DNA from: Catajapyx aquilonaris
Lineage: Eukaryota
DNA length: 64,000 bases
Direction of reading: 5' to 3'
NCBI GenBank assembly: GCA_000934665.2
Contig: KZ538345.1
Location: forward strand, 1 to 64,000
Part shown: positions 12,341-63,490 of the stretch, one piece after another
How the letters are laid out: every line of letters begins with the position of its first letter
Position numbering within the stretch: the stretch's first letter is position 1
Program-made: the position numbers and the translations under genes
Notes under the pieces: generated by a model
Seen by the model: only the letters and a program-made list of their open reading frames with translations
Databases searched by the model: none
What the model was told of the DNA's origin: nothing

Positions 12341-12344
12341 GCCC

Positions 12345-37584: not shown

Positions 37585-37645
<61 letters not shown>
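37585..37645. repeat. (TC)n microsatellite
   Basis: Directly visible. Confidence 0.97.
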
Positions 37646-37649
<4 letters not shown>

Positions 37650-38272: not shown

Positions 38273-38340
38273 AATAGTAGTAATTTATTAACAGTGTCAG
38301 TATTAAATTATGTCACTCTCTATTATACCGAATGTGTATA

Positions 38341-38534
38341 CAGGGTGTCCGAACAATTATCGGAAATATTGCACTAAGCTGCTTATTTTTTTAGCAGTGA
38401 TGCACCAGTGATGCTTCCCTGGCTTTATCAGTTGAGGGATGTGCCAGGAATGTTGGGGCATATTCTGGCTACATAGCTAGAAGATACATAGGCTTTTCCG
38501 ATAACTGTTCGGACAAAAAAGTTGAGACACCCTG
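38341..38534. mobile_element. Tc1/mariner-like MITE
   Basis: TA|CAGGGTGTC ... GACACCCTG|TA, plus an inner inverted pair tgtccgaacaattatcggaaa / tttccgataactgttcggaca. Confidence 0.8.
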
Positions 38535-41164: not shown

Positions 41165-41261
41165 AAAATAATAAAAATAATAAAAATAAAAATAAAAATA
41201 AAAATAAAAATATAATAATAATAATAATAAAAATAAAAATAAAAATAAAAATAAAAATAAT
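41165..41261. repeat. (AAAAT/AAT)n microsatellite
   Basis: Directly visible. Confidence 0.9.
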
Positions 41262-41381
41262 CAAACATAATTTAAAGACATACTAGAAAACCATTCGCTT
41301 CGCTCACTTTCTTCCAGGCCTGCGGTTGAGGCCATAGTCTATTGTTAATCGAACCAGGGGGGGAGGGGGGGGGGAGTAGAT

Positions 41382-41634
41382 CAGTCCTTCCGAAACTGTT
41401 GGGTCGCGAATATAATTGAGGTCGTGAGGGAGGGTAACAAATAAGTTTAACAAAATGATTATATCTCTTTGAAAAAATACGCCCGTAAACGAGATGTATT
41501 AATTTATCGATGATTGTCATTGACTACCACTATGTACACTGTACTGTACAGTACAATGCCTTTTCGTGTTGGGGGTCGCGAATTTTACGAGCCAATTTTT
41601 TGGGGTCGCTGACGAAAACGATTAGGAAGCACTG
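41382..41634. mobile_element. hAT (Buster-type) MITE with perfect 8-bp TSD
   Basis: TSD gagtagat at 41374-41381 and 41635-41642, with a central TA. Ends are CAGTCCTTCCGAA ... TTAGGAAGCACTG, with subterminal GGGTCGC repeats. Confidence 0.88.
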
Positions 41635-43059
41635 GAGTAGATGGAAAGCCTTGAGGGGGCAGGGCGGCAGATGTGATGGTGGTAGTGGTGGTGGGGAGAC
41701 TGGGTGTGGGAGTGGGGAGGGAGAGAAGTGAACCCTTCAGCCGACAGCAATCTAATGGACAGTTCCCCCTCCCACCCACCAGAGGCGCTGCCTACACTCA
41801 CTGCGCATGCGGAGAACACATGCCAATAGGAAGCGTCACAGTAACAAATGCGGCGGTCCAATCAGAAAGCGTCTGCAAACATGCCCACTAAGATTTTAAT
41901 ATTATTTATTTATTTTGCACAGAGAAGGTAAAATGACAATAACTGTATTGTTAGAAGTCTGTGGTTTTCCGGGAAATCCATGTATAGGCCTATGAAGAGG
42001 TAGGCTACCGATCTGAAGAATTCGGGAGCCCAGTGTTAATGAGGAAACCAGGCCAGGCTGTCTTTTATCTGGAAGAATCGAAATGTCCCTAATTACCCCC
42101 CTTCTTGCCGCTGCATATGTATGTGGGGAGTCTTTTGGCGCGTGGGCGATTGCAGGATAGCAGTCTGACTGAGAGTTGTGACCCGTGTCCTTGGAGCGGT
42201 CCTTGCCACTGAATTGGGCATGAGGATGGTACACCCCCCTTAGCCCCCTCTGCTTCTCTCTGAAGTAAGTCAGGTGTAGCTGCGCCCACCTTGTCCGTGG
42301 ATAACGCGATGATGAGGCCCTTTCCCCCCCATCCACCATGCACCCACCTACGCCCACCTGCTCCTTACTATTCAAATGGCCTCTTTGTTCCCCCGATTCA
42401 TGTTGTCGACATCACACCTCACTCCGAAACATGCCCTCTTATGGCCTCCACACCTACCGCCCAGAGGGATAAGATAGGTAGAAAAAAAAGAGAAAGGGAA
42501 GGAAGATGCCGAAGAAACAAAACCAAAAAAAAAAATCTTCACGCGACTACTGATGGACTTGCTCTGGTCACGTGGTCGACATTTCGACCCGTTTGACCAT
42601 ATTGCGAGCTGGTGGTCCACACTTCAACAGGTTCTGAGATCCATACTGTTATGTAAAGAGAGGTATAATTAAGGGGTTGGTTGGGTAATGATCCACTGCG
42701 GAATTTCCGAATATACCAAAAAAAGGGTATTGTCAGACGTATATAAATGGGAGTATTAGCAGAGTTAGTGGGTGATATTACACTGCGGTAATTATAACTT
42801 TTGATTGGCCTGCGGGCTCGCGGGACATTACGGAGTTCGAATAATTTGTTCGCAATTTTTTGGACATATCGTGCATTTTTTACAGGTCGATAATTATGAG
42901 AGTTATGCATAACATTGGTATCAAGGACGGAAATCTGTGAAAAGTTTTTCGCCACAGCACCAGAGTATGCATGACCAAATGAGGAATTAGTAATGTAATT
43001 TAGCTCAAATTCGACGCTGTAAAGGAGAAGCTAGGAGTGGAAGGAAGATACTGTATCCA

Positions 43060-43190
43060 CTCTGAAGAGGAAGCAATACCTGAATATATAATTATATGCT
43101 ATTGCCCTGAGACTGACAGGAAGAAACACGTGGAAATCTCCGACTCAGGATGGATTCGAACACAGGACCTCCCGAATGGAAGGCGTAACT
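43060..43190 (-). mobile_element. SINE fragment (tRNA-like head), related to 47095-47235
   Basis: ggattcgaacacaggacctcccgaat is the reverse complement of a B-box-containing head and parallels gaatcgaacccaggacctcccgatt at ~47205-47230. Confidence 0.55.
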
Positions 43191-45685
43191 ATACTATATA
43201 CTAGGCTACCTCTATGCGCATTTGCGGGAGAAGTATAGACCTAATCGGCAGAAATTTTTCAGCAAGCAAGGGCTTTATTTTGTATTACAACAGCAACAAC
43301 AATAATAAACCAACGACAGCGAAGAATCGAAGATGGTGGTGGTCTGGCTCTTGAAAGTATAACATTCTCTCACCATTATTTGCACGGTTAGTAATAAACC
43401 ATAAATTACTCCATCTCATCATTATCATCATCACCACCTCCTCCATCGCTATCGTCACAATTGCAGTTTTGGTAGTTATATAACTACCACTAAAACTGCA
43501 GTTGTGACGATAGGGTAGGGGGGTAGGGCCGTAGGGGACTGTAGGGTGATAATTATTATGGGGAAATATTTTAATAATCAAAGATAACCGAAGGTGGCGA
43601 GTGGCGATGATGATCACAATCACCATCACCATCACAACCAGTGATGATATTCATGTTGATTAGCTGGAGAGTGCATCTTGCTTTGTGCGCGACTCCTACC
43701 AAAATTGCAGTAGTGCCAAATGATCAGTATAGTTGTAGCTTGCGGGTATTTGCGTGTATACCATATAATATACACTGTACAGTATATAGTCATGTTGCAT
43801 GATCTAACGGATTAAATGAAATGATATAGAAACAAGCCCTGAGTCATTCCTATATAATATGCTTGAAACGTTTATATGGGTATGTAATGTACTGTACAAC
43901 TGTATATCGAGGTGAGTGGGAATAGAAACAAAATAATATTGTATTGTTCTACACCTGCAAAATTCAAACGAGCTATGCAAGGTCAGAATGATATGGCCAC
44001 TTTATACCCAAACATTTTTCCTTCGCAAGTTACTGACTTCAGTGTTACAATTTCGTGGGGTTATACATCACATTCATATATAGATTTAATCGGCGTGTCA
44101 TGCAGAGTGTTCTCATAATAAAAGCCCATGTGTAAATGCATAAATTTAAATTAAATTACAAAATACCCGTTTTTAAAGATTTGTTTTTAGATGCATAAAA
44201 ATAAGTTGGTATAAATATAAAATTAGTATAATCACGTGAACAGCACTCCCGATTTGTCCACAGGATGGCCCAATTGACTCACACTTTTAACAATCTAAGC
44301 GTGGTAAAAAGTGATGGATTACTTTATCCTGTCTCTCTCGCGCATTCTCATATGGTAGATCCCGATGTGTATGCTGGTCTGTAATACGTATACAGGTCAC
44401 CCGGAGGGTGCCCACCAGGTCTCCACGAACTGACAAGCAGTTGTCTAAATACTCATCAGTATCTCATAGATAAGTGATTAGTGACAGCGAGGGCGGGAGG
44501 GGAATTCAATCAACCGCGTGCGGTTTCTGATAAAATGTGACTTTAAATAACGTAGTTGAAGAGTTTTCTGCGTTGGCCAAAGTTTGTACGGTATAACGTA
44601 TTTGAGATACTCGTCAACCGAACATTTGTCCCACAGTATAATAATCTCCACCATCGAGTCATCAAGGTGTTGAGGTCGCAAAATGTAGGTCATCTGAAGT
44701 TCATGAAACAGTGAACCATATTCGAGAAAGGTTCTATGACAGTCTCCAACACTCAGCCGTAGGACCACATTTTACCATTTATTTTTTGAAAGCACGCTAA
44801 GGATGTTTACCAAAGGAACACTTGTGTTCTGATGTAAGGCAATGGCATGGATCCAAAGGGCTGTACAGCACATCCGACAGAGACATTTTGGACCCATGTC
44901 AAGTTTATGGGCCGGTGTCTATGATGGCGTGCGGATCCTTTATAGTTGCGGTTCAAGATAAATAAAGCTACGGTTGATAAACTTGTCTTATTGCGTTACC
45001 AACTCCTGCGGCCAAAATTTTTCGCCAATCATAGCCGCCATTTTTTTTTCAACATGCAAAAAGTGTGATGTTTGGCAGGAAAATACACCACGCGTTTTGA
45101 TAAAATGTCACATGATTACACGTCTCGATGTAGTAAACCATGGTATCCTCTGACTAAATTAGCGTTACCGTAAATGTATTCATGCATGCGGTAGCCTACA
45201 CTGTGATCAGACTGAAGTGCCATACTTTACGGCCGAGACCACAAAAACTGTTCTATTGTCCCCCTTTTACATTGTCGTTCATTAACCGGCGTATCTAGGA
45301 ACGCCCTTCAAGTTGACAGCCATAACTTTTCCTCCACCTGATACCATCTACACCGCTAAGATGCTGGTCCAATCGGGGACCCCTCTGTTTTAAAATATAT
45401 AGTTAGTGACAACGATTAGGCCGGCATAAGACTACTTATCCAGCATAACAGGAAGCATGGGATGGAATTGCTTCTTGGTCCTCCTGTAGGTAGGAAGGTA
45501 TCAGATATTCTCCGTTGGAAACGAGGATTGTGCCCGAGTCGCATGTTCAAGTCTCTGCTATTATATCGCACCTCAATACAGGTTCAAACCGGCCTGAAAC
45601 GTAGTTTACTTATGCTGCTGTTTGTCAATAAGGTATGTTGCAGAAAAGGACACCTTGCTGTACCTTGCTGTATGTTGGGTCATCT

Positions 45686-46057
45686 TCCATTCTCTGAAAC
45701 AAAGCCTAATGTCCCATTCCTTCCCAATTAACTACAGGGTGTGCCAATAATTAAGCCTGCAAAAAATTGAACTTATCACTGATGTAGTACCATGTCATTG
45801 GTTCCAATAGGCCATTCCTAATTAGATAATTTCAATTCACAGCATGGAAAGACTATTCATTTCGCCCTTTTAGCAGATAGGGTAATGCTTTTGATAAACG
45901 CTATAAGTGGCTATTCAAGAGTTAGTAACTGCTTAGAAAGAATCTGCTAAATACTGTAGCTTAGCACTTTGGACATTGCAATAGGAACACCCAATATATT
46001 TATATTAAAGTAAATAAATGACATTTATATCGTTGAACAACAGTATAGTAATTTATT
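45686..46057 (+). repeat. Local direct duplication, copy 1 (contains a CAGGGTG-type MITE plus flanks)
   Basis: Aligns by eye with 48811-49173 along its length, including sequence on both sides of the tacagggtg..ggaacaccc MITE. Confidence 0.85.
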
Positions 46058-46880
46058 CCAGAATTTTTGAAAGTGTGGTCGTGAAGATCATGAAGGAATA
46101 ATTGGAGGGTTGATTACCAGGTTGATGGGCCTGCCCTTTCTACCGTTTGAATTGTGGTGATATGTCGAGGAGGGCAGCGAGTCTTTCATTTTGGTTCAGA
46201 ATGGAGTGCACAAAACTGAGTGTGACATAATCCGTAGGTTTCTGCTTGTTGTTAATTGTTGACAAAAACTAACAGTAGCAGTGAGAGGAGGGATGTTAAA
46301 ATTCAGAATTTTAGTTGTTAAAATCATGGGTTTCAACAGACATTTATGAATGGCAGCCAAGATGTATAGGACCGACGCATTAGCTATATGACCTACCTCA
46401 GAAATATTAAAATTCAGGGCTAGGAACCGCACGGGACATATATACCACCCACGGGCACCACCTGCTTTAAAAACAACCCGCTCCCCAAAAATTCAATCCG
46501 GGAGTAAAAAGTAATTACCAGATTAAATAATACCATGAGTGACATAAAAGCACCTTAGGGCCATTCCCGTTAATTGATAGTAACCCGGTTCCTATGATTT
46601 AACAGAGGCTAATGATTCTCCCTCCCACCTCTCGATTCAACCTGGGTGGCCAAGAGGCCACATCCAAACTGCCCTCCAGGTCTATACCCATGGTACCAAA
46701 GCATCAACCGGTTAAAAATACACGCTGTTAGTGATTTACCTTCTATACCTACATTACCTACATAACAGGCTTTAAAAAAATTAAGGGTATACCTTCTGTA
46801 TGTTGGTTGTGTGACCGATAGTGGACCCTCTCTATCCGCGGGGGATTTGTTCGGGCCAATACCACAATTGGCAGTGTACA

Positions 46881-47277
46881 CAGGGTGTTCCAAATATCCG
46901 GATCACTTTTGGATAACTGCTATTGCCTGATAGCAGTTATTTTTGTAGCAGTTATCCAAAAGTGACCCGTATATTTTTATTTATTTATTTATATTTACCC
47001 CTTTGGGAGAATCGGCGCTCCATTAGGGGGGGTGGAATACCACCATTTTACCACTCAATTTTTCTGACTTTTTCACACATGGGTGGGGCCAAGGATAGGG
47101 AAGGAAGCGGCTGTGGCCTTTTATACGGAAGCGACCCCGGAATTATCCTGGGGGGGGGGGGACACCGTGGAAAACCACAGAAATCTACGGTCAGGGTCGC
47201 CGGGGAATCGAACCCAGGACCTCCCGATTAGCAGTCGGACCTGCTTCGGTAGTGACCCGGATATTTAGAACACCCTG
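46881..47277. mobile_element. Tc1/mariner-like MITE with a nested SINE fragment (~47095-47235, minus)
   Basis: TIRs cagggtgttccaaatatccggatcact / agtgacccggatatttagaacaccctg|ta. The interior has ggaaggaagcggctgtggcc..ggaaaaccacagaaa..gaatcgaacccaggacctccc. Confidence 0.8.
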
Positions 47278-47639
47278 TACAGGCACGTCCTCTGTATACC
47301 TTAAATCATATCTACCTTATAGTAGATCACTAACTCATACCCAACCCTGTTCACCATCCCAGTCATTCGCACGTTAATACCTAATCAACATGGAGGTCCA
47401 GCCAACAAATTTTTTAAAGCCCCACCTGAATCATAAAACGGCTCTTAATTGGCAATTTTTTTTCCCTCTCCATTGCCAACCGCTGAATAGCTTGAATGAG
47501 CCGTGATCTGGCGGAATGAGTAGACAGCTCGGCGCCCACCTTCAACAGAAAATACAACCAGACGGCAGCACTGTCGCCACGTCCTACCCAACTCTGTAAC
47601 CAGAGCGGGAAGAAATGGTCTTTCTCTCCTCCTCCCCCC

Positions 47640-47744
47640 NNNNNNNNNNNNNNNNNNNNNNNNNNNNNNNNNNNNNNNNNNNNNNNNNNNNNNNNNNNNN
47701 NNNNNNNNNNNNNNNNNNNNNNNNNNNNNNNNNNNNNNNNNNNN
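47640..47744. other. Assembly gap
   Basis: Run of N between poly-C and poly-T tracts. Confidence 1.
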
Positions 47745-48810
47745 TTTTTTTTTTTTTTAAGAAGGCAGTAGCTTCGGGTATATACACTTTTTTTGGGGAA
47801 CAAAATTCACTCAGAAGAACCAAGACTGCTTTTATACTAGGGTGTTGAGATAAGAAATGGGCGCGTGTAATTGCGCTGACAACGGCCATATTTCTAATCC
47901 GGAGCAGGGCCCTCAGTTTAGTATTCCAAAACCGGCCGGATGGGGGCAGGCTATTCGAATTTCATAGCCTGTCACACCTTCTAAAAAAAAAATTTATATA
48001 CATATATAAAAAAAACAACTTATATAAAAACAATCAATTTCACACCGTAAAGAGAGGAGCGTAAAAGTAAGTTGGGCTTTTTTTTTTATTACTCGGTGCA
48101 TAAATTGATGCAAAGTGGTCCAAAATGTCGGAGGGCATTAATGGCGGCAGTTTGGGAAAAGGAAAAAGGGGGGAACTGTCGTGACAAATGTGCTCCAAAT
48201 TGAAAATGTCGCGGGTGTTATAACTTGGCGGATTGCTCGAATGAGAACGGGGGCAAGAAGGGTGTCACTTTGGAGCGGTTGGAGAATTCGGCGGAGTCAG
48301 TCATTTGTACGGCGTTACGGACTCTAATTTTAGTGGGTCTGGATGTGCAATTTTCGGGAACATTTTTTTTTCGTTCTCGGTTTGATGTAATAAATTTTAA
48401 GGATATATGTACTTCGAGACTCCCATACACATTAAATCACCTGTATAGATGACTTATAACAGCTCTTGGTTATAATACCGTAAATAGTTTTGCTCTTTTG
48501 GAACTGTGTGTATGAAATCGAATTAGGGCAAATGTCTGATTATGCATATGTATTCTCAAGGCACAGTCCGATATAACCGGAGTTTTTCTCCTTTATTTTC
48601 TGTGATACACCGGTCAGTGCATAGAGTTATTATACCAACTAATATCTTGCATAGAAGTAGAGGCTCACCAGAAATATGATGTCTGCTAGTAGTTTCTTCT
48701 TCCTCGCATCAGTTTCACACTGACAGATACACTGCTTCATTATTGGCGTCAAAGGGGGCCAATTAGGGCCTTCATAACTTACCATGAAACCAAGAAGCAT
48801 TTATGTTCCA

Positions 48811-49173
48811 TCCATTCTCTGAAACAAAACCCACTGTCCCATTCCTTCCCACTCACCCCCCTACAGGGTGTTCCAATTAAGTCTGCAAAAAATTGCACTT
48901 ATCACTGATGTACCATGTCATTTGTTCCAATAGGCCATTCCTAATCGGAAAATTGCGATTCACAGCATAGAAAGACGATTCATGACGGCCCAAAAGCAGA
49001 TACGGTTATACTTATGATAACAACTTAAAGTAGCTATTCAAGAGTAACTGCTTAGACAGAAGCTGATAAATATCTTAGCACTTTGGAACATTATAATTGG
49101 AACACCCAATGTATTTATTATATTAGAGTAAATAAATGACATATATATGTTTGAACAACAATAGGAATTTATT
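48811..49173 (+). repeat. Local direct duplication, copy 2
   Basis: See 45686-46057. The MITE TIRs cagggtgttccaatt / aattggaacaccc are clearer in this copy. Confidence 0.85.
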
Positions 49174-49221
49174 ATTTTCATTCAACGACTTTAATCATTT
49201 GCCTGATCTGTGATGGATTTA

Positions 49222-49387
49222 AATTGTGGGAGGAAACGGGAGAACCCCGAGAAAACCCACGCAAACACGGAGAGAATCCATCGAAACACTTTCCACATAA
49301 GCATCCTCTGCCCGATCCGGGGACCGAACTTGGGACCTCAGAGGTGGAAGGCTGTGGCGATAAGCACCACTACACCACCGTGTCGCC
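49222..49387 (-). mobile_element. tRNA-derived SINE with V-SINE-like central domain
   Basis: Minus strand: head ggcgacacggtggtgtagtgg..aagttcggtcccc, then ttctctccgtgtttgcgtgggttttctcggggttctcccgtttcctcccaca. Confidence 0.8.
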
Positions 49388-49616
49388 CATTACTCATTAC
49401 ATCTAGCAGGCGCTGATTTCGAATATGAAGTTTCTATCAGGATCAATAATTTTCTTGTAGCAAACTTACCTTTTTTCTAGAAAGTATTGCACATTGCAAT
49501 AGCACCTCATGTATATTTTAAAGTAATAAAATTCCATATTAGGATTTATCGGCTTATCTATACTTCTTCCAAAATAGGAGAAACATGATAGGCAATGTTA
49601 GTCATTACTTACTAAC

Positions 49617-50406
49617 TGAATCGTGGAAATCAAAACCGCTCTATGTTACATTTTTCGGATAATTATTGAACGAATCCTAGAATACAGATCGCACATGCGT
49701 GATATTGGTATCCACGGAAAGATGTGATGAAACTGTCGACATACCAGATGGTACGACTCCTTTGAGTTGAACGACGACTGAATGGTAAGGGACAATATTG
49801 GACCCCACCGCAGAGGCTGGAAAAAAGAAAAAAACATCTCAGTTTTAATTTCTACACAATCGTGGAACGTCAAACTATGTTATGTTAAGCGTAAATGAAA
49901 TGGTGCACGTAACTCAAAATTGTGATTCGCAGAATCCAATGCGGAAAAAATAGTTCCGGCGAAACTGAACGTGCGTTGCAAGAGAGGGGTGATGAAGTAC
50001 CTCTCACGTACTGCTCCTGCATGAGTGACGTGTGTCGAACCACATGGTATAAGTTCAGTTTCGCCGGAACTATTTTTCCCGCATTGGATTCTGCGAATCG
50101 TATTTTTGAGTTACGTGCACCATAAATTTGATTTTATAACTTAACATAGCGTGGTTTTACGTTCCACGATTGTTTAGAAATCAAACCTGTGTTTTTTTTT
50201 CGGCCTCTCCGGTGGGGTCCAACTGTCGCTTACCATTCAGTCGTTCAACTCAGGGAATCGTACCACCTGGTATGTCGACAGTTTCACAATATCTTTCCGT
50301 GGATACCAATATCACGCGTGTGCGATCTGTATTTTCGTTCAATAAGGGTGAGTTTATAGTTTATCCTGAAAATGCAACATAGCTCGGCCTTTATTTCCAC
50401 GATTCA
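49617..50406. repeat. Long inverted repeat (foldback), ~350-bp arms, 82-bp spacer
   Basis: 49617-49970 pairs with 50053-50406 through long exact blocks (gatattggtatccacggaaagat, gaaactgtcgacatacca, atggtgcacgtaactcaaaa, gattcgcagaatccaatgcgg, aaaaatagttccggcgaaactgaac). A weaker outer match gcgctgatttc/gaaatcagcgc lies at ~49410/50521. Confidence 0.92.
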
Positions 50407-50624
50407 ATTACAAATTATGTGGAATTTCAGTGTTCTGTACTATTTTGCTACCATAAAAACGGCGATTACTAAAAATTTCGGAATGATAGAAAATATGGGC
50501 TAAGATATTTGAAATCAGCGCAAAAAAACAAACAATACGATAGCATATTCTTGTAGGCTAAAATTATCTTAGGTCTGGTCGTTTTAAGACAGCCAGTTGT
50601 GGTCGTTCCTCCCTATTAATACTG

Positions 50625-50688
50625 GCTCAAAACGATGGAGACGATTTTGCATTTGTTTCAATGCAAAATCGTCTCGATCTTTTTGAGC
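50625..50688. repeat. 64-nt near-perfect hairpin
   Basis: gctcaaaacgatg-gagacgattttgcatt-tgtttc-aatgcaaaatcgtctc-gatctttttgagc: a 29-bp stem with 2 mismatches and a 6-nt loop. Confidence 0.85.
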
Positions 50689-51023
50689 GATATAATACCT
50701 ATATGGATATGGATATGCAGGTGACGGGGTGATGTATGGAACCCTTAGTGTTTTCGGGTGATCGCACCAGGACTGTCCTTTGTTGTGGCCCGCCAGGCAC
50801 GGTCCTTCGCATTGCCCGATGATTTTAGTTAGTTGCGAGTTTTAGCAATTGAATAATTGTTATTAAGCCACATTGAGGCAGTTTATCTCTTCAAAATGAT
50901 TGTGTATGGGCTATCTTATTTCTGCTTAATAACAATTATTATACAATAATTGCTAAAATGGCTGTACTACTAACTTACTATTTTTTGTCGAAATCGGAAA
51001 AGGTTTGTCGGAAAAGTGGTAGT

Positions 51024-52118
51024 TCAATTTTGTAGATCATTGTAATTGTAATTTTCAGTTTGCTGGGTCTGCATTTTATCCTTTTTGATCCTGTACGATG
51101 GTTTTATATTAAGGTAACTACATTTAAAGGTTTCATCCACAACCATGATGACACCCAAGTTGTTGGGCTCACTGCGTGTGTAGTTGGGGGCCGAGAAGAC
51201 GGTAACAAGTTTTCGGCCGGCGAAGTATTTATACCCTTTTGGACATACTTGATGAGCCCGGCACACGAGGTCCAGATTGAACTTCTCCAAAAACTCTATG
51301 AGAGCGTCCTCGCCAAATACCAGACTCACTTTCCTGTCGGCGTTGGGTGCCCACCCTACGCGACCTTCTTGAGGATCGGCCCATAACAGATCACACATGA
51401 GACCGTCATTCGGTACAGTCGCCGGACGTTTTATAAGTCTTATTTGGTCCAAGTTGTTCAAATGTGGGCTAATTCCTCCGTGGCAGCAGAAGATCTTGCC
51501 ATCGATGATGGCCGACACAGGAAGTACGTCGAATACGGCATTAAACATCACCCACACCCGCGCCCGGTGACTCCTTTCACATTCTGCTAGGAACCCGTAG
51601 TTCCTGTTCATGGAGCCGCACTCGTGGTTGCCCCTCAACATGTACAAGTTTTCCGGGTACTTTATCTTATAACATATAAGCAGCATCACGACCTCGACCG
51701 AGTTTGGTCCCCGGTCAACGTAGTCCCCCAAAAAGAGGTACTTGTTAGTGGAAGGGTGACCTCCGATGTTGAAAATTGTGAGCAGGTCTTTATACTGTCC
51801 GTGGATGTCCCCGCAGACCTTTATGGGCGTATTCACCTCCAGGAGCATGGGCTGACTTAGTAATACTATCGTTGCTGCTTCCAACACTCTTCGTATGACG
51901 GGCTCTGCCATCTCGACGTACTCTTGGTGGAAGGTAGGCATCGCTAGCAACCGCTGTATCAAGGTGTCGACATCGTGGTCGATCTCCTCAGTGATCGCCC
52001 CAGTGCTCGCCCCAGGGGTAGTATCAGTGGTCGTACCAGTGCTCGTCCCAGTGGTCGCCCCAGTGGTCGTACCAGTGGTCGTACCGGTGGTCGTACCAGT
52101 GCTCGTGCTTGCATCCAT
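51024..52118 (-). CDS. Divergent PP1-like serine/threonine protein phosphatase catalytic subunit (PPP family), nested antisense in the netrin intron
   Basis: Uninterrupted 364-aa ORF with all PPP motifs: GDIHG, GDYVDRG, LRGNHE, CHGG, DLLWADP, RAHQ, FSAPNY. PP1-type context: LLSQPMLLE, YLFLGDYVDRG, YKIKYPEN, IIDGKIFCCHGGISP, GLMCDLLW. Possible in-frame upstream exon 52235-52187. Confidence 0.95.
   Translation of the reverse strand: MDASTSTGTTTGTTTGTTTGATTGTSTGTTTDTTPGASTGAITEEIDHDVDTLIQRLLAMPTFHQEYVEMAEPVIRRVLEAATIVLLSQPMLLEVNTPIKVCGDIHGQYKDLLTIFNIGGHPSTNKYLFLGDYVDRGPNSVEVVMLLICYKIKYPENLYMLRGNHECGSMNRNYGFLAECERSHRARVWVMFNAVFDVLPVSAIIDGKIFCCHGGISPHLNNLDQIRLIKRPATVPNDGLMCDLLWADPQEGRVGWAPNADRKVSLVFGEDALIEFLEKFNLDLVCRAHQVCPKGYKYFAGRKLVTVFSAPNYTRSEPNNLGVIMVVDETFKCSYLNIKPSYRIKKDKMQTQQTENYNYNDLQN
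51988..52107 (-). repeat. Coding 12-bp tandem repeat x10 encoding (TTTG)-like units
   Basis: Units of consensus ccagtggtcgta on the + strand translate on the minus strand as TSTG TTTG TTTG TTTG ATTG TSTG TTTD TTPG ASTG AITE. Confidence 0.92.
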
Positions 52119-53548
52119 GGCGTGTGAGACCCAGCAATCTTAAACAAAATGAGAGAAAATATTAGACTTAAAAATCTAATACTTACCTATTCCGAGGCCG
52201 AAGGCGGGCTGACCGCGGTCATTCCGCGGTTCCATGGTTACATAATGGAGTCTCTCTGGTAACAATATTTGACCCCTTCTAGAGAAAGTGTATCAATTGA
52301 TATGTCGAGGAGAACCACGAGTTTGGACTTTTTACTTTAAATTTTTCTGACAATGTTATAGTAGAGGATGGCCAAGGAAAACTTTGTTAAATCGTATATT
52401 GATCATATTAACTTCAATTTAATCAAATCAATGGTGTATTGGTATGTGGAATCATGCTTGGGTACATTTGGGCGCATTAAAATTATATTAAAATTATTGA
52501 TATTGACCAATATGTTAAGACTCAAAAAATTGGAATTTAGCTAAAGTTGATATAAAAATTAAAGTTTAAATTCTGCCAGGTTCCTATCATTTTACGTGAC
52601 CATTACAAATGCGAAAAAATTGCAGATTTTCCCCACGCGGCAACAAATACTGTATGGGTATATTTAAAAACTCAGTTTCACTTTTTCATCTGTAGTATCC
52701 TCACAGTGAAATCTATCTAGATACTTCTGAACAACAATAACAATAATAACAACAACGCGATTGTTTGCTTGTGAATTGAAGACTGCGGCATTTTGAAAAA
52801 GCAACGTATCATTTATGCTTCATAAATGCTTCATAAAGATTTAAAAAAATCAAGACCACCATTAAGCCCTACATTGTTAAATATTACACAATCTCCGACA
52901 TCTCCATTCATTACCACCCTAATTAGAGCCACATTTGATTCGCCTGTACCTTCCATTTAATAAATTGAAATCCTGCTCCCAATATTAGCCCGAGATATTC
53001 TTTCCTCCACCTACAAGCCGACACTGATTACCTAATCCAATTTCGCCATAGCCTGATCCTCACCCTCATTTTTATTTTACCGTCAGGGCCTTCCCCCCCC
53101 CCCCCCCCNCTCCTTCCAACCTAGGACAGAAAGTAATCACGACCGCATTTAAGTTTCCCATGTCACTGCTGACCGCCAACCGACATGTCCTCCGTAAACC
53201 GTACGTGCCCCAACTCCGACGGGCGATTGCGGAGGAAAGTGGAATGGTGTTTTAATCTGATTGTTTGATGATGGGTACAAGATGAGGGGTACCCCCCCGC
53301 TCGATTCCAAAACCACAGCCATCCATTTCTGCAGAGCCTCAGCCGCAATATTCCGGGCGGCGCTCCGCATCGTATCTCCTCCCTCCGCGCCTAATTTAAT
53401 ATGCGACCCGCACAGCCACCTTAGCAAATCATGCCCCCCACCCAACCCTCCTCCACACCCGTCCCTCCCCACGTCCACAAAATTTGTCTGAGCGCTTTAT
53501 CAAGCCAACCCAAGCATCTCAGGAAACCCCCCCCCCCCCCCCCCCCCC

Positions 53549-53694
53549 NNNNNNNNNNNNNNNNNNNNNNNNNNNNNNNNNNNNNNNNNNNNNNNNNNNN
53601 NNNNNNNNNNNNNNNNNNNNNNNNNNNNNNNNNNNNNNNNNNNNNNNNNNNNNNNNNNNNNNNNNNNNNNNNNNNNNNNNNNNNNNNNNNNNNN
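53549..53694. other. Assembly gap
   Basis: Run of N between poly-C and poly-G tracts. Confidence 1.
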
Positions 53695-54004
53695 GGGGGG
53701 GGGGGGGGTGTTGAGGTCACGTCCGATACGTCTTTATTCAAGCAGGCCACTCAACTGCGGCCAGGGACACTCCACATGAGGTGCTTCCTTTGCAGCCGGA
53801 CCTGCACTTTGTCACGCTTCAAACTGCTGCTTGTTTGGCTTTTTTTTGTTGCAACCACTTGCCACTTGTTCGTTTTATCGCTTTAATTAGCATTTGATCA
53901 GGTTGGTTGTGTTACTGACATGGTGGTATTTGCCATGCTTGATGGGAATTTTTTGTATGTGTAAATAGCTTCAAATATGTTATCATGTCGTCTCATTTCT
54001 CTTC

Positions 54005-54005
<1 letters not shown>

Positions 54006-54079
<74 letters not shown>
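54006..54079. repeat. (ATT)n microsatellite followed by (GTC)n
   Basis: Directly visible. Confidence 0.97.
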
Positions 54080-57000
54080 CGTCGTCGTCGTTGTTATTAT
54101 TTACAAAGTACAGTTTGTTGATCATAAACGTACTGTACTTGGACGACGAAAAAAACACGGTATCACGAGCGCCTTCAAGTAATGATTTCGAGTGTAAGAT
54201 TCGATTGGTCGTATCGTACGTAAATATTGCGGGTAACATGCAGCTGCAATGCGCCTGTATACAGTAGTTATAAAATAAATAATGCACTGGGATATCCGTG
54301 CAGTGTGTTTATCTATAGAACAAGAGTTGTATTGTATTGTATACTGAACTGCCGTACATTGATCATCCCTCTCCTTGGGTGTTCCTGTTTAATGCACGTT
54401 CCAGCTGTTTATAGATATTGTGATTGGCGACCGTCTTTTTTGTCACGTCATCGCCTACTTAACGGCTCACTTGATATATACTGAAAGTCACACTTTTCCT
54501 GCGAATACAAGACGTGTGCATGATCCTGAATAAACTACCGCGCCGCTAAGAATTTATTGTTGTATGCATTACAAAACGAATTGAATAAATTTATTATGCA
54601 CCCTATGGGCTTTGGACTGGCGAAAGAATCTGGACACAGAGTTACGATATAAACCAGAATGCTGCCAGAGCATGGTGGCTCCTTACTTAAAAAGAAACCT
54701 GTACAATATCGTAAAAGAATTCTTGTACTGGAAAATGTGCCGTCACGCTAACCATTGACAAAGCGGTAGCTGTCATTTATGGCATTACCTTCGGCACCTT
54801 CACGTTACGCGATGCTATCAGCTATTATTTACTGAAAGGAAGGCGGGGTCGGGTGGTGTAGAACTTGAGGCGCAATGAAGAAAATTCGTGACGTTGAATG
54901 AGAAGGAATAGTCCAGGGTAGGGTAAAAGGCAGTCAGGTTCCGTTGGATTCCTGAATCCCGAGTGTCATAAACCAGTAAGTTGTAGCCGTATAATTGTGT
55001 CCCATGAGTAAGGTGAGGGGGCACCAGATGATACTATAAAGGTTTCCTTCTTTCGGGAGGGGACTCGCTAGACTAGTTTCAAGGATGATGGTGGAGGTGG
55101 GGGAAGATGGAGTGCGTGGGAAATGAGGTGAGAAAGACGGCAAAGAAAAGGTATTCGGCGTTTCTCCCCTTCCCCACCATCGTCTCCCCAAGGCGATCTA
55201 CCCAAATGGTGTCGCCTGACCAGAAATTCGAATATTAGGCAGAGTGCAATGTGACAACGTCAAACGAGCATGCGCCAATCAACGACGTTCATCTGGCGCG
55301 CTGAGCCTGATCGCAGTGCTCTGTGTGATGTTGCCATGTGTATATTACATCATTTGTCACGATTAAGCCGTATCTCGTAATTCTTCCAGCAGTGGCAGCG
55401 CAAGTACACAGTGAGGTTAATGGCTTTGCACCTTCCCTGCTTCTTTCATGATTCTTTCTCGAATCAAACCATTCCTTTTTCCTATCCTCCACTAACTCAA
55501 GTTCCCCCGCCTTGGAAAACCCCCACTTTTCCTCCCCTAATCCGGATCTAATTGCTCTCATGCTTTATTCATGGCCCAGCGCAGGCGCCTAGCCCTCACT
55601 CGATGGAAGCCCCGTCTCCCGGCCCCTAGGCGACTTAATTCCAATTAACTAATTGCAATCAAGTTTCCGCCTCGACTCAGAGACGGAAGAGACGATAGGT
55701 GGGGAGAAATTTTTGAAAGGAAGGTTATTGTTTTTGGAGAAAAAATGGCGGAAAGGGTTAGGAGCGCCCCCCCCCCCCCCCNNNNNNNCCCCCCCCCCCC
55801 CCCCGCCCCCATTTGTTCATAAGCGAAGGCGTTGGCAATAAAGCACATGAGCGGTGGTGAATAATGGCGGTGGTGAAAGTTGTAGCAATTTTCCTCGGAT
55901 GCGGAAAATAACCATGATTTATACACAGCGAATCAGTGGGGAGGGTTGCCTCACCTGGTAGCCACGGGTTGCCAGCTCTCTGGATCGCTTCCGGCCAAAT
56001 AAGGGGGACCATAGGATTGGGGCAACTATGGGGTATTGTTATGGGCATTTATTGTTGGATCGAGGGGCTGGGTCGGCATTGATGGATGCTTTCGACGCCT
56101 TCTCAAAAGACCCAAGGGTTCTTTTCTGTTGGTCTGGTAAAGGACACCCCAGGAATTCCTTTCACTCAATTGCGCTGGTAAACCTTCCGATTCTTGTTTA
56201 GACCTTGTGGCCCAAGTCCAGTCCACACTTTTGGTCAACACGTTCAGACCGCCAAAGTTGTATGTCGCCGGTTGACATACCCACAAGTCACGCCGACCAG
56301 CTAATGACTCATCTACTTCTTTTCAACTCAGTCGCATACCATGTGTCCCAAGTTGCTGTAGATACTTCTTGACACCCAGGGATTGAGCCCTGTATTTACA
56401 GCCGGGCCAACCCAGCCATGTAGATTCCTTGGAATCTCCGGATTCCACAAAACATATCTTGGCTGGTCAAATAAGGGGGGAAGGGGTGTGGGTGTGTTTT
56501 CTCAGCAGGGTAGCAGATCCCAATCCGAATGTCCCATCTTCGAAAGAAAAAGAAGAAAAAAAAGAAAGGTCAGGGAATTTAGTTCGCTGGCTCGCATGCA
56601 GCAGCGCCACCAAATCTCCTGGCGGCATCAAGCGGGGCTAAGAATCTCAGCGCGCTAAATTGGTTGCCTTATCTGATTCTGGGATAGACAAAGGGAAGAA
56701 GGAGCAGACCCGTTTCCCTTTTGGCCGTCGTTGTTGTAGATCACCGCCGTCCCCCAGACGGACGGCGCTAATTACTATTCTTGATCTTTCTGTCCCGAAG
56801 TTTTTTTTTTTTTTTTTTCATTCTCCGGGTTCGTTTTCTTCAGGACTGATTGGGCCTGTCAGCAGGAATTGCCGTCATGCCTGGTCGACAACTAAACATT
56901 ACGGTTTAATTGTTTTTTTCCACCCTTGGAATGATTTTCTCCCGCCGGTCCTCATCTATATAGCGCAGGAATGATGACTGAATTTCAAACCTGCGGGGAA

Positions 57001-59136
57001 GAAAGAGATATCTTGTGCATAATTATTTAAAAATGAAAATAGTACATGAGCTATTTTTTGCGTTAAATTTATGGTGAGGATGTTATGCCATGGGCGTTGT
57101 TGATCTTTGAAAAAAATAAACGATGCTCCTCCCCTACATCTATAATCTATATTGACCAAAGACATCACGGAAAAGGTCCTGCGTCAGTCATTATGCAATC
57201 AGTACAAGTGTGGTATCCAGGACATCCAATAATAGAGTTTACTAGGTTTATTCCTGTCTCGCATAAATCACTCCAAACGTTAGGACGAAGTCATATTTTT
57301 GCCACCAGTGACATTAATTATCCTCTGGGTCAATTTTGTCGCATGAATTTGCTGAATATTCAAGAGCCAAACAATATTAGATTTTATATATAGATTTGTT
57401 TTAAATAACTTGAGTCGCCTTCTTCATGATTATGAATATCCCGACACGTGCACCCGCCCAACATGAAATGCACAGAATTGACATGAGCACATCAGTATAT
57501 GGCACAACGGTCTGAGGAGAGGTGCTCAACTTATCAATGAAGGATATTATATGCGGAAGTCCTTAACTGGCTGCATGAATCGTGGTCAGTGTTGAAATTA
57601 AGTGCAGATAGGAACATATCCCATCGCCCATGAGTAATAATGTTTACTAATATTTATGCTGATCCGTATTCTTTTCGCATAGTTTTGTGCTATTAACTGT
57701 ATAGAAATGTCAAATTATAGCACCCTGTTATTGTTGGAATTGTTTTTACTGCGTTTTTAAAATTTCAAAATATTAGACTTTGTAAAACCACCGTTGTTTG
57801 TATTGATATTACGATAATATTACAATCATCACTTATTTGAATTACTCTGCTAATCTGTCACGCACGTCCACAATGCCAATTGCAAATCTTGTGATTAAAA
57901 CTTATTCACTTTGCTATTTCCCTCAGTTTATTAATATACAATATACGCATCTACTTGCTCCCAACATAATGCAAAGAATATTGCATTACAACACTTGACA
58001 TTCTATACACAATTAACTTGGACATATAATGCGTGTCTCGTAATATGAACTGTATATTTCCAGAATTTAACGAGTCAGAGCAGTCCATAAATGATATCAT
58101 CTGGTAGGGGAAGACCCTCGTCCTCCTCCCCCCCCCCCCTCCCCCCCATCCAGCGATTTCTTTTGGCCCTCGGAGGGGGAAGTCGTAATCACATAAATGC
58201 GATGCAGTATTTGAGCGAGCTTAGTTTGAAAACTGCGCCCTCCCTGTTCATAAAGATAATTTAATTTCCGTCCAATTTAACGAAAAAAAAATCCCTCCGG
58301 CATTGTATCTATAAACATTTGCGCATCATTTTGTACAACAAAAAGGCGCGATCTTACATGTGTTTAGATCCAGCACGCGGTGGCCTTTTTGCCGCAAGGA
58401 GGTGGGAGCTGCAGGGCTGCCAACAGTGTCGGCAAGCCCTTGGGATGATCCCCCTTTCATCCGGGCGTAATTAGGCTCACCCCCCACCCTCCCTGTGGGG
58501 GATCAAAAGGGGCCAAGCCCCGGCGCAGGTCGAGCAATAACGTTGGCCGCCACGATCCGCGCTAATGAGGCGGGCGCAGAAAGGGTCAGCTGGGATGAGC
58601 GCCACGGAATCCCCCGGATCCAAAATCCCTCAAACCACCCCCCTGTCTACCACCCACCCAAAAACCGAAAAAACCGCAAAACGGGCTACAAAGCGAGGAC
58701 CGGCGTTGCAGTTATACTGGGTTTGCCATATCTGGGACGAGCAAGGACACCTCAAAGGGTAGTTTGACCCAATAGTCTGGTATAGCCTTTCGCATAATGT
58801 GGACTGTAATGCCAAGAGCGCCGATTTTATGCTACGTATGTATCTGTTGCTTCTGGGCCTGAATCCGGGATGTGGAGGATTCATTTCGTATTATAGTCCA
58901 TTAGCGGAGTGGAGACTCAGAAGGTGGATGACTCTTGCCCCAGACACGACTATACCAGAAACCACCAAGCCCCTGGAAGCATGGGAAAGATTCAATAAAT
59001 TTTTCAGAGTTTTCAGATTCGATATATGAATTTTCCCTATTGGCATCTTGTTATATCCTTTTCCTACATGCTTCATAGAAATTGATTTATGGACCGGCGA
59101 TTGGAAGATAATTTTAGTAATTTAAGCAGAGAACTA

Positions 59137-59405
59137 GGCACCAACTTGCCAAAATTTGGCAAACAAATTAGGCAAAATTGCGAAAGTGGAGAGAGGGAGG
59201 GAGAGAGAGAGAGAGAAAGAGAGACGCGGACCAGGCAGCGACATCCGACGACGAATTACCGCTCGCGGCCGGAACGGCGCGGCGTTTGGTTTTTTAAGGC
59301 GCTCGTCGTTTTTTTTGCGTTTTATAAATTCCCTGGACACTATTTCCAAAAAAAAAAACAAAGTTTACTGAAAATATAGGACACGCGGGCTAAATTTTGA
59401 CATCA
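59137..59405 (-). repeat. Dispersed repeat, second copy of 38045-38272, with an inserted GA tract
   Basis: See 38045-38272. Confidence 0.7.
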
Positions 59406-62400
59406 TTTCCAATGCTGTAGGCCGTACACAGCGGGAGGAATCGCCATCACAGTAAGGTATTAATAATATAAATGGTAGTGACGTCACAAGCGTTTCATTT
59501 TCAGTTTCATTGACAGTTGTATGATTTATCTCGCGTGTCTCATAATTAACATTATAGCCATCGTTGCTGTTACACCACGAAAAGCACAATTAATCAATCC
59601 TAATTTAGCTCACACTCTTGTCAGTGGAAATGGTGCGTATACTCTCGTATCTCACTTTAGCCCTCCTGACATCAATATAAGCAAGATATAAGGGGTAAGG
59701 TTCTCGTGGTGGAATGCACCTTCGGTTCTGCCTGGCCTGTTCTTGTCGGATACACTCAGGTACAGGAGTACCAACATGACTCAGTAGCATCGGCTGAATT
59801 TCCACCGGTACGGATGTGAGATCCGTTCTGAAACACCATGATATTATGGGCTAGAAAGGTGTTTAGTGGGGTTATTAATTTTAAATCTAAACTGATAATA
59901 ATGAGTGATCAATGGCATATGTACAGTAAAATCCATATTATCATCATTCATAGCAGCAGGAGTCTCCGCTGATAAATATCTATAGACTCCAGCATTAAGT
60001 CACATTAGACAATCACCTGGTGTTGCACTCAACAAGAGCAGCCATTTAAAAAAACACACTATGAATCATCAACTAAAGGAGACGGCAACAATGCCGTGCC
60101 TATCTGCTGGTCGATTAAGCAGCATGGTGCCGGCTTGTTTGGTTCTAATTGCGCTTACTGCGTGACTTCCGTGCCACCAATTAATGCTAATATCTATGCT
60201 AGTATAGGCAGGGGCATATGTATATCACGAAAGGAACTCATCCCAGCTTGGGCCACGAATTTTTGGAGGCTTCCCGCAGTCCCGGGTCTCATGTGTCGGC
60301 CAATGCCCCTCATACATCCCATTGATGACCTCGTTCCCTGTCGCGATTGGATATACAGTATTGAAATAAGTCCGCATTCCCTGCAACTGCAGGCGGCCCT
60401 ACAAATCAAGGGCATCCAAAGAAAGATATGCTAGTCCTACTTTCCTATCTCCATTATTGCAATTAGAACCGAGTAATGGGTGTCACTCTTTAGCTGTGAA
60501 TTATGGCTATTGGACACAATTCACATTACCTTTTTAATTAATGAAGGACAGGTTGTCTTCTTCTCGGTTGTGGCCATGTCCCTGGACAGCCCTGCAATGA
60601 GGCGGCAACAGCTTTTTAAGACCACCCATAGCTCTCATAATTCAACGCCCATCCTTGGGACACCTGCCCCCCCTCAACCCCCTTGCCCTGGTCCCCTCCC
60701 TCTCTTCAATTCTTCACACCTATGGCTCAGGAGGAGGAAAAATAAGTATGGCCCCCCTACCAGTTGCATCTCTATTCCTTGCCCATTTCTATGGAATTCT
60801 TGCACACGTCAGAGGTAGTCGAAATTAAAACTAGCAGATTTAAATTTTCAGTACAAGGATAGGTAAAGCAGCGCCAATTGCTTATGTCAGGAGCATATAA
60901 TTATTTTCATAAGGGCAGGGTTTTGCAATTTATTGTTGTCCCCATTCTTTTGACATCCCAGACGTGTACCGGTACTGAAAAATAATACCATACCTACCGT
61001 ACAAAAAAAAATCAACGTGGCAGTGATATAATTACGCAGCTCGTAACTAATTTAAATTGAAAGTACGGCTGTCAGACCCAGCATTTAATGTGACAATAAT
61101 CTCAGAGCTCAATTAGGATGAAGCACCCAATTGAAATATGACAACCACTTTTCGGCTCCTGCACAATGGCGATTATGGATGTGTAAGAAAACGCTTTCTA
61201 ATCTCAACTAATCGTACCCCCTCTTAATCCTACATCCCCCATTGGAATAGGGCGTTGCCATGTAGGAATGAGCCAAACGAGGTGTGAAGCATATACCCTC
61301 GTGAGTAGAAGATTACTGCGAGAGGTGCATAACCAGTGTGAGATCCATTAATTAGAGGTTTCACTCTCTCGCCTGGCTTATTTCAACACCCATGCCTTTT
61401 TTTTGTGTGTGTGGTTTGGTACGGAAAGTGGCGGTAACATGCCTTGACGTGATGACTTGGTTGTAGGCGGGTGTTGCCAGTTGATGGCAACCCTGTGAGG
61501 AATTGGCGGGAAAGGAGGCGGCCATTCCTGGTGATGGCAACAACGCAATTCTTCTATGTGGCAAAGGTCGGGCGTATTGTCGAGGCCGTGGCAGCGACGA
61601 AGATGCCCATGACAGCCGTGTCCAACGGAGAGATGAGCACAAAAAGAAGGCCACATACCCACCCATCCACCCACCCCCTTCCTGGTCCCAACCCCTGCAG
61701 AGCCACATAGCCAAGCGTATAGGCCTGACCACTTGGGATTTCCTTCTAAGGTGTGACCTTGCCACTACACCTGAACTGGAAGATGAGTTTTGGGTAAAAA
61801 AAAAGGTCGTCCCCCGATCCACCCCCCACATGGATTGCAGGATTCCGCTGTGAAAGGCCTAGATAAGGATGTCATCATCAAAAATCAAGGTGGAAGAAAT
61901 GAAGTCATTTTATGGTTGACCAGCAACTATCGGAGAATGGTTTTCTAAATCACAGGAAATAATCATATTTTCGAGCATACAAAGTGCTTAAATTACTACG
62001 CAGTATCAGGTCTTTAAAGTGTCAGCCGAGCTGCCCTTTCCAGCAGTCAAATTAGGCTCAAAATAAATTTGGGCACCGCGTTTTGATTCATTTTTGTACG
62101 AAACGTCTCAGGGAAGTCTCCTTCGGAAGTCTGCCAAGAAAGAAAGAAAGAAAAAAAAAACTGGCGGTTTACTCATGGGACCACGCTTCATCCTCTGGGA
62201 AAATCAAAGAGTTTGTTTGTTCTAATGGAGGGAGCAGGAGAAACCGCCATGTTCTTTTGCTCTGGATTTGAAAACGACAGGAGTGAGCCAGAAAGATAAG
62301 AATCAAATACTGCAAAGCCAAATAATCACCATCCCTTCACAAATATTTGGTTAGGTCGAAGGTCGCCAGGCATATACCTTAATAGGGGAAACCATGTGGA

Positions 62401-63490
62401 CGTTTATGTCTGTTATGCACTTATGACGTTGTGTGTCTGAAGGGCTAGTATACGTATAGGTCCGTTGATGATGTCGTGCAGGTCCATAACACTGTCACGT
62501 TTGTTGCCATTAACTGTGATATTAATAGCATTCAAGTCAATGGGCGGTCGGAGCAAAATATATTTCCTTAAGAAACTATTATTGGCGCTCTCGTTTGGCA
62601 CTACCTTGGAAGATCTCCATTCCAGTATTTCTTACATCAAAGACACTTCCTATTCGTATCCCATTTTTAGCAATGTCATTATGCAACAGGTTGTACCACT
62701 CCAGCATTCTCATATTAAAGCCAAAATGAGCTACTGACTAATTGAACGTCCTTTACAACGCAATTCAAAAGTGACTCCAACAGTCACACGTTTTGAAATT
62801 GACATAATTATTACCTGGGCAGTGTTTATTAGGCGCCACATCCTCGACTCCACCTGAGACCATCCTTTCCAGCCCCTAACCGACTCCTTACAGAGTACGC
62901 CCACGGGCCATCTGCACAGGGCAGAACCAGTTTTGGAGCACTTCTAGAGGGAGGACCAACCATCAGGAGTACGTCGGTGCTGTTGGCCAAAACGTGTGCC
63001 ATAAATTACAGGCCAGAGGTTGGGTAGGGGGCAAAAAAGGGTAAGTGACGGATGACGGATAAAGGAAATGAAAATGGCCACCACCGGAAGTTGAGACGTT
63101 ATTTTTATTGGTGGAGCTGACCTGAGAGAGATTTATAGCGTTTATCCGGACTAGTTACGTTGTAAGGCTCGGGAGCTAAGGAGGGCAATCAGCATAACAA
63201 TGCACACTGACGGTAAAGTTGCCCACTTTTTGCTCCTTTCCTTAAAGGGTGCTCCTCCACTTCCAAGTGTTTAATCCGCTTAATGTCGTGTACTCTGTCC
63301 GATGTCCCGATTGCAGGGACCACCTTGAAGCTGAATACAAATTGCGAACTTGCCCTCTTTGGCGTGAAGTCTTGATCACTTGGAGGGATATCAGGGTGGC
63401 GCCCAATTCAAATGGGTGCCAATGACCTGAGTTCGATCCGTGGTGGGGCTTGTTGTCCATGATTGACATGATTCAACTTGCTATTTCCAG

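Follow-up and report, generated by a model that had tools for sequence, protein, structure and literature searches.

Introduction

Few eukaryotic enzymes are as conserved as protein phosphatase 1 (PP1), whose specificity is conferred mostly by partner proteins. Divergent PP1 paralogues tied to sperm, GSP-3 and GSP-4, are known from Caenorhabditis elegans, and the fungal Ppz1-type phosphatases carry a PP1-like core behind a low-complexity N-terminal extension. Here we analyzed a PP1-like phosphatase gene of the arthropod Catajapyx aquilonaris. The gene is on the minus strand (51024..52118) of a 64,000-nt stretch of genomic DNA (assembly GCA_000934665.2, contig KZ538345.1, positions 1 to 64,000 of the forward strand), hereafter the window. 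A preliminary description of the window had read the gene as a functional, lineage-specific PP1 paralogue nested in an intron of a netrin gene.

The closest described systems are from insects. In Drosophila, retroposition has repeatedly given rise to new PPP genes, among them PpY-55A, PpN58A, PpD5, PpD6, Pp1-Y1 and Pp1-Y2 (Miskei et al. 2011, PMC3137614). In the parts of that report used here, the PP1 retrogenes are described as male-specific, faster evolving and difficult to place in trees, and PpY-55A as having retained one parental intron. In Nilaparvata lugens the paralogues NlPPP1-Y, -Y1 and -Y2 are male-biased and show RNA interference phenotypes; -Y1 and -Y2 are intronless and NlPPP1-Y has 4 exons, and the PP1-alpha and PP1-beta genes of the same species are split into 7 and 3 exons (Wang et al. 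2020, PMC7331678). The sections of the latter report on which we draw define the PP1 subfamily by the motifs GDxHG, GDxVDRG and GNHE and a C-terminal TPPR/TPQR. They also give the TPPR site as missing from Drosophila melanogaster (Dm) Pp1-87B and Pp1-13C and from the male-biased NlPPP1-Ys, and place DmPpY-55A, DmPpN58A and NlPPP1-Y at about 50-58% identity to PP1-alpha, and at 55-58% when fly PP1-alpha is the reference (PMC7331678). As for position, nested genes typically arise when short young duplicates insert in long introns, according to the part of Assis (2016, PMC5174743) used here.

The C. aquilonaris phosphatase looks like a further member of these fast-evolving PP1 duplicates already known from flies and planthoppers, i.e., a new, unannotated arthropod case with surface changes of its own. 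Since its intronlessness, its divergence and its PP1 type are comparable to those of the fly and planthopper paralogues, we take it to be of a known kind. Like the Drosophila retrogenes, as far as they are described in PMC3137614, it is of PP1 type, would be derived from a canonical PP1, is (nearly) intronless, evolves fast, is lineage-restricted and is hard to place. Like the NlPPP1-Ys, within the cited sections of PMC7331678, it is a poorly conserved PP1 paralogue that lacks TPPR and keeps GDxHG, GDxVDRG and GNHE. Its identity to canonical PP1 (51-53%) falls in the range of DmPpY-55A, DmPpN58A and NlPPP1-Y, whereas NlPPP1-Y1 and -Y2 are given as about 71-73% identical to fly PP1-alpha. Its Thr/Gly repeat at the N-terminus and its nested antisense position are not among the features given for the Drosophila retrogenes in the parts of PMC3137614 used here. 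Male-specific expression is documented for the Drosophila genes. We consider it probable that this is a real single-copy host gene, derived from a duplicate, and that the PP1-type phosphatase it encodes is catalytically competent, strongly diverged and remodelled on its specificity surfaces.

Results

An intact gene for a divergent PP1-type phosphatase

The open reading frame (ORF) runs from ATG to stop at 51024..52118 on the minus strand and comprises 1095 nt (364 amino acids plus the stop), with the start context GCC ATG G. From stop to stop it measures 371 codons, which makes it the second longest of the window behind netrin exon 1 (405 codons). The longest ORFs of 60 first-order Markov surrogates of the window had a mean length of 182 codons, and none was longer than 251. 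The unbroken 1095-nt ORF reported in the preliminary description is thus far beyond chance length. The span had been given there as 51024..52235; the ORF itself ends at 52118, and 52235 is a separate upstream ATG. The absence of introns from the catalytic domain was confirmed, in that the whole PP1 domain is uninterrupted in the coding sequence (CDS). The GC content at third codon positions (GC3) of this CDS is 0.61, and regional GC is roughly 0.40-0.45; the netrin exons deviate in the same direction (GC3 0.73-0.75).

The predicted protein has three parts. A 12-nt tandem repeat (51989..52106, minus strand; 9.8 copies, 82% matches) preserves the frame and encodes a low-complexity N-terminal extension (about residues 5-43); the first ∼45 residues of the protein are Thr/Gly-rich. 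The PP1 catalytic core with its N-terminal helix (residues 49-346; 51081..51974, minus strand) is 53% identical to PP1-gamma. The C-terminal tail (residues 347-364; 51027..51080, minus strand) carries no TPPR/TPQR Cdk site.

All scores placed the protein closest to PP1. The Pfam Metallophos domain matched residues 98-292 (2.7e-43, above the curated cut-off) and STPPase_N residues 50-95 (4.8e-07; 30.6 bits against a curated cut-off of 26.8). Among solved structures PP1-gamma, PP1-beta and PP1-alpha ranked first over residues 49-346 (4.9e-107 for PP1-gamma to about 1e-104), and PP2A reached 8.7e-76; the bit scores were 361 for PP1, 290 for PP2B, 258 for PP2A and 208 for PP5. By BLASTP the protein is 53% identical to mammalian PP1-gamma and 51% to insect PP1-alpha. 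The motifs GDIHG, GDYVDRG, GNHE, HGG, RAHQ and SAPNY are all present, and the layout of STPPase_N and Metallophos, together with the PP1-closest scores, matches a PP1 subfamily catalytic subunit. Membership in the fungal Ppz1 type, whose PP1-like core (PDB 5jpf, 5jpe) scored lower (1.9e-92 against 4.9e-107 for PP1), was rejected, as PP1 scores higher and the host is an arthropod. The predicted product is therefore a complete Ser/Thr phosphatase catalytic subunit of PP1 type that has diverged strongly.

The active site is kept and the specificity surfaces differ

The phosphatase core was aligned with 213 PP1-like domains. A subset of these from the first search, 113 canonical PP1s of animals, plants, fungi and protists, served as the reference. 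Core (residues 49-346), active site and domain layout are those of canonical PP1 alpha/beta/gamma (PDB 7sd0, 1it6, 1s70). At 53% identity, the protein differs from them in the acidic groove, part of the hydrophobic groove, the beta12-beta13 loop and the C-terminal tail. In the alignment to PP1-gamma all 12 catalytic, metal-binding and phosphate-binding residues are identical (D64, H66, D92, D95, R96, N124, H125, H173, D208, R221, H248 and Y272, PP1 numbering; the list comes in part from the portions of PMC10003451 and PMC7599070 used here), so that the metal-binding motifs are intact, as claimed earlier.

Many near-invariant residues had also been said to have changed, and this holds for 21 of the 135 columns with at least 95% invariance among the 113 PP1s: E34V, A57T, P83S, N86K, I104V, F119Y, I130M, D138A, K141E, R143S, N157D, G222K, V232L, V251C, E252P, F257Y, C273T, F276P, L289F, F293Y and I295N. 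The altered columns fall mostly on substrate and regulator surfaces. When groove residue lists taken in part from the available passages of PMC10003451 and PMC7599070 were mapped onto the phosphatase, all four contacts of the acidic groove were found replaced (E218P, E252P, C273T, D277N), and five of the 12 contacts of the hydrophobic groove changed, among them I130M, I133N and G222K. The five residues of the catalytic cleft (R96, H125, D220, V250, Y272) are kept. The beta12-beta13 toxin/inhibitor loop is rewritten as SAPNYTRSEPNNLG and is one residue longer than that of PP1-gamma; relative to the same protein there is also a one-residue insertion immediately ahead of the catalytic R221. The catalytic domain has 33 acidic residues, 10 fewer than PP1-gamma (43). 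The RVxF pocket, which we take to comprise 13 residues, has nine that are identical, three conservative changes (F257Y, L289F, F293Y) and M290K.

These differences suggest how the enzyme may work. With its active site intact it would retain dephosphorylation of phospho-Ser/Thr, and with an RVxF pocket that is mostly kept, on the 13 residues considered, it could probably still be recruited by RVxF partners. The remodelled grooves and the rewritten beta12-beta13 loop would confer a different specificity towards substrates, inhibitors and toxins, and a tail without the Cdk site would leave the enzyme outside Cdk control.

Substitutions have avoided the invariant positions

The changes are unevenly placed. 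The share of columns changed rises from 16% of the invariant ones to 59%, 66%, 76% and 91% in progressively less conserved classes; 21 of 135 invariant columns are changed, as against 43 of 73 in the class with 80-95% conservation (Fisher p = 2e-10). Neutral drift was simulated by placing substitutions on the ORF's own catalytic-domain DNA, with indels ignored, and at 45% protein divergence only 0.2% of the 2000 replicates were stop-free. If change were even at the observed identity, the chance that all 12 active-site residues are kept would be about 6e-4.

These figures bear on the alternative that the ORF is a silent or recently dead copy, i.e., a processed pseudogene whose frame is open by chance. 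Such a copy would fit the lack of an AATAAA signal and the change of the near-invariant G222, E252, C273 and F276. The frame left open so rarely by neutral drift, the avoidance of invariant columns, the 12 retained catalytic residues and a GC3 well above local GC all argue against it, and we regard a dead copy as quite unlikely. From the placement of the substitutions, the open frame, the kept active site and GC3, it is therefore well supported that purifying selection has acted on fold and catalysis across most of the history of the lineage, a pattern with which very recent silencing would be compatible.

The phosphatase is a long branch of PP1 type

No relative with more than 60% identity over more than half of the phosphatase was found in large protein collections, and the exact sequence was not found in a collection of 15 billion proteins. 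In a word search among proteins of near-equal length, the best of the 8000 scored candidates with the most words in common had 58% identity at 80% coverage; among proteins under 200 amino acids, scored in the same way, the best had 64% identity at 26% coverage. When 1.84 billion cluster representatives were searched exhaustively with HMMER, the best identity was 60%, over a partial match. These represent 50% clusters, and a closer relative could sit behind a canonical representative. Matches in a protein atlas were to generic PP1 clusters only. Identity was 51-58% to every full-length PP1 found, about 55% alike to those of plants, protists and animals. With tblastn, no second PP1 fragment was found within the window.

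Trees were built on the collected PP1-like domains. In the FastTree of 214 domains the terminal branch of the phosphatase was 1.07 substitutions per site long; the median branch was 0.09. No supported sister was found among the 213 and 51 other sequences of two trees, and the sole nematode sequence near it was Pristionchus pph-1 (support 0.62-0.73). On its sequence, the phosphatase is a long orphan branch of PP1 type. The finding of no orthologue in very large protein collections fits the designation lineage-specific. The earlier reading as a functional, lineage-specific paralogue was thus strengthened as far as an intact, divergent gene under long-term constraint and this lack of an orthologue go.

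The gene is single-copy at host depth

The Logan contigs placed on positions 45500-56500 came from three runs of what is probably the source sample and from one run of a second sample. Those of the second sample, which bears the same species label (X5), covered repeats only. In each run two contigs, 50811-51510 and 51485-52690, reproduced the phosphatase ORF without any difference, and there were no variant rows inside it. Word depth over the ORF in run X1 was 31-48; the left single-copy flanks had 30-36, and 54.3-56.5 kb had 21-39. No sign of extra copies at least 90% identical appeared, as depth or as variants, over most of the ORF. The phosphatase is single-copy at host depth.

A break between contigs falls inside the ORF at 51485-51510, in the codons for IIDGKIFCCH, in all three source runs. 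In each run there is one contig that connects 48893 with 51481, and depth is 48 in 51005-51738 as against 31 further 5′ in the gene. It is possible that a second locus shares about 30 nt (51481-51510) with the C-terminal half of the phosphatase.

The gene lies on an assembly contig of 5,364 nt (47745-53108) followed by a single N at 53109. Elements of very high depth are found on this assembly contig as well, about 7,000-fold at 50638-51004 and 80,000-fold at 49170-49536, and three of its stretches have copies elsewhere in the window, e.g., 48811-49173 against 45686-46057 (81% over 380 nt). Foreign DNA (from a parasite, a symbiont or food), or multi-copy transposon cargo, would be in keeping with the even identity to plant, protist and animal PP1s and with a contig flanked by gaps. 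Host single-copy depth in three runs, host interspersed repeats only 340 nt to 2 kb away from the ORF, and the missing extra copies speak against either source, which is highly improbable. We looked for the near-identical transposon-borne copies and the contamination that the preliminary description had named as evidence against a functional gene, and found instead single-copy depth and host repeats on the contig. A contaminant was rejected on the host-like depth and on the repeats common to the contig and the rest of the window. Capture by a transposon was rejected on the single-copy depth; an 18-nt inverted pair flanking the ORF is, by a rough estimate, near chance level in 5.4 kb.

Probable position in the netrin intron

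In the scaffold, the phosphatase is antisense within a netrin intron of 32,722 nt (30769..63490, plus strand). The first netrin ORF (29559-30773, plus strand) matched Laminin_N (3.5e-64) and a laminin EGF domain, and the second (63472-63822, plus strand) laminin EGF. The best relatives of the first piece are arthropod netrins (Hymenoptera, Daphnia), with 53-59% identity across more than 90% of the query, which points to a pancrustacean host lacking close annotated relatives in the collection searched. The AAGG at the end of exon 1 (30768) is followed by GTGAGT, exon 2 begins at 63491 after TTTCCAG, and the reading frame is continuous across the junction.

The phosphatase contig is bounded by two gaps. 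The left one has 105 N (47640..47744) and adjoins a very high-copy tRNA-like repeat; the right one has 146 N (53549..53694). No read contig spans either of them, and therefore the nesting rests on the original scaffolding. Consequently, of the antisense nesting proposed earlier, the 32.7-kb intron and the opposite strand stand, and the placement depends on scaffolding across these gaps. Between the single N and the right gap is a 439-nt contig (53110-53548; 56.5% GC), the weakest local assembly, and read-contig depth is 0-9.5 in 53207-53573.

In arthropods with gene-body methylation, a high CpG content would suggest a domain that is unmethylated in the germline. Here CpG observed/expected was about 1.0 in 49001-55000, and the remaining intron and flank segments for which it was measured had 0.62-0.76. 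The high-CpG domain extends beyond the phosphatase contig into 53695-55000; since it passes the right end of the contig, it is regional and not an artefact of the contig.

The gene could be real and its placement a scaffolding error, with the 5.4-kb contig coming from elsewhere in the same genome. The bounding gaps and the single N, the adjoining repeats or low-depth sequence at the large unbridged gaps, and the deviating CpG ratio are as such an error would have it. Set against this are the continuation of the CpG domain past the contig, a contig depth equal to that of the left flank, and the 81%-identical 380-nt repeat shared with 45686-46057, to the left of the gap; in addition, short sized gaps would resemble those of read-pair scaffolding. 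An error of this kind is unlikely in our judgment, and a position inside the netrin intron is probable.

Origin of the gene

The earlier description had proposed a retrocopy. The coding region is intronless. That a genome with an intron as long as 32.7 kb holds a catalytic domain with none would fit retroposition, given the introns of canonical insect PP1 genes, here those of N. lugens. At the phosphatase locus no A-tract beyond 6 A and no AATAAA were found, and among six direct-repeat families there was no flanking target-site duplication. The single-copy 3′ flank (50811..51023, minus strand; about 213 nt), likely the 3′ untranslated region (UTR), contains as its sole poly(A)-signal-like hexamer AATAAG at 50920 and no AATAAA. 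The hallmarks of retroposition may be missing because they are expected to decay at such divergence. The intronless coding region is compatible with the proposal, which found no support in a poly(A) remnant, an AATAAA signal or a flanking duplication; by analogy, a retrocopy origin is plausible.

Upstream of the ORF is a hypothetical 49-nt mini-exon (52187..52235, minus strand), which begins at an ATG and ends in AG followed by GTAAGT, and then a hypothetical 48-nt intron (52139..52186, minus strand) that runs from GTAAGT to TTTAAG. If spliced, the mini-exon would add 23 in-frame residues; if unspliced, it would be a 19-codon upstream ORF. The in-frame fit has a 1-in-3 chance of arising at random.

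The candidate exon and intron bear on the alternative that no retroposition was involved: the gene would have been duplicated at the DNA level and then lost its introns, or it would be a single exon of a gene with several. This alternative also draws on the missing poly(A) remnant and target-site duplication, on the contig breaks at 51485-51510 and the joint from 48893 to 51481, which hint at a second locus sharing ∼30 nt, and on a male-biased PP1 with introns, NlPPP1-Y (4 exons in the cited part of PMC7331678). On the other side, the catalytic domain is uninterrupted, in contrast to the intron-containing NlPPP1-alpha (7 exons) and NlPPP1-beta (3 exons) as given there, and retroposition hallmarks are expected to have decayed at 47% protein divergence. 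An intron in the 5′ UTR could have been gained after retroposition, and PpY-55A, in the account of PMC3137614, kept a parental intron. Duplication at the DNA level is possible, if on the doubtful side. As to a retrocopy, the locus would, by analogy with other cases, be accounted for if a canonical PP1 gene had been duplicated, the simplest route being its retroposition into a long intron.

Other features of the window

Of the 111 ORFs of at least 90 amino acids, 102 were scanned against Pfam, and the only match to a transposable element domain was a single weak reverse transcriptase fragment, in accord with the earlier statement that the transposon ORFs of the window have decayed. This RVT_1 fragment (8086-8355, minus strand; 3.7e-05) is below the cut-off. 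An ORF of 228 amino acids at 12322-13005 (minus strand), which has no Pfam match, resembles by eye ORF1 of a long interspersed element; the two are the only transposon coding remnants among the 102 scanned ORFs. At 9091-9352 (plus strand) there is an exon with a ttttcag acceptor, an AAG/gttagt donor and an MLLE domain of the poly(A)-binding-protein type (Pfam PF00658, 4.3e-23), apparently part of a poly(A)-binding-protein-like gene that precedes netrin on the plus strand.

The only hit of the Rfam scan was a tRNA-Ser(GCT)-like sequence at 47193-47258 (minus strand; ARAGORN; Rfam 30.9 bits) inside the repeat 46968-47334. The repeat borders the 105-N gap, reaches about 86,000 in word depth in the source runs, and is probably a tRNA-derived short interspersed element. 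Nested inverted repeats of ∼800 nt (49606-50417; arms of up to 80 nt, 93% complementary) are next to the 80,000-fold element, and the elements at 49170-50417, 0.6-1.9 kb downstream of the phosphatase stop, look like a foldback or a transposon resembling miniature inverted-repeat elements. A 29-nt near-perfect palindrome (50625-50688) falls in the ∼7,000-fold-depth repeat, ∼340 nt 3′ of the same stop.

Discussion

The proposal of a real, single-copy and probably active PP1-type gene has to be weighed against several points. The tree neighbours of the phosphatase had support of 0.73-0.78 with 214 domains, but in the FastTree of 52 sequences they were different and had 0.52-0.62. The substitution G222K, at a 98%-invariant position next to R221, together with the insertion before R221, could impair activity. 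It is also conceivable, on the sequence evidence, that function was lost too recently for the frame to have closed. Expression would likely be tissue-restricted, and the male germline is our best guess by analogy with the Drosophila and Nilaparvata paralogues, a guess that extends insect findings to this species.

A bolder reading may be put forward tentatively, and on balance it is rather unlikely. By analogy with the insect genes, the phosphatase might represent an independent origin, in a non-model pancrustacean lineage, of a PP1 isozyme that, with its active site retained, its acidic groove neutralised, its toxin/inhibitor loop rewritten and a Thr/Gly repeat added, escapes the usual inhibitors and Cdk control, has private substrates, probably in the male germline, and is separated from netrin expression by its antisense nesting. 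If this were true, "reproductive PP1s" would have arisen independently a third or fourth time, in addition to those of flies, planthoppers and nematodes.

The finding overturns nothing in current understanding. For annotation it means a real nested gene in the netrin intron, probably so placed, that homology-transfer pipelines could miss or label as canonical PP1. Paralogues that keep the active site while their grooves are rewritten can reveal which PP1 surfaces tolerate change. If the gene proves to be expressed in the germline, such repeated independent births would strengthen the case for reproduction as a driver of PP1 diversification.

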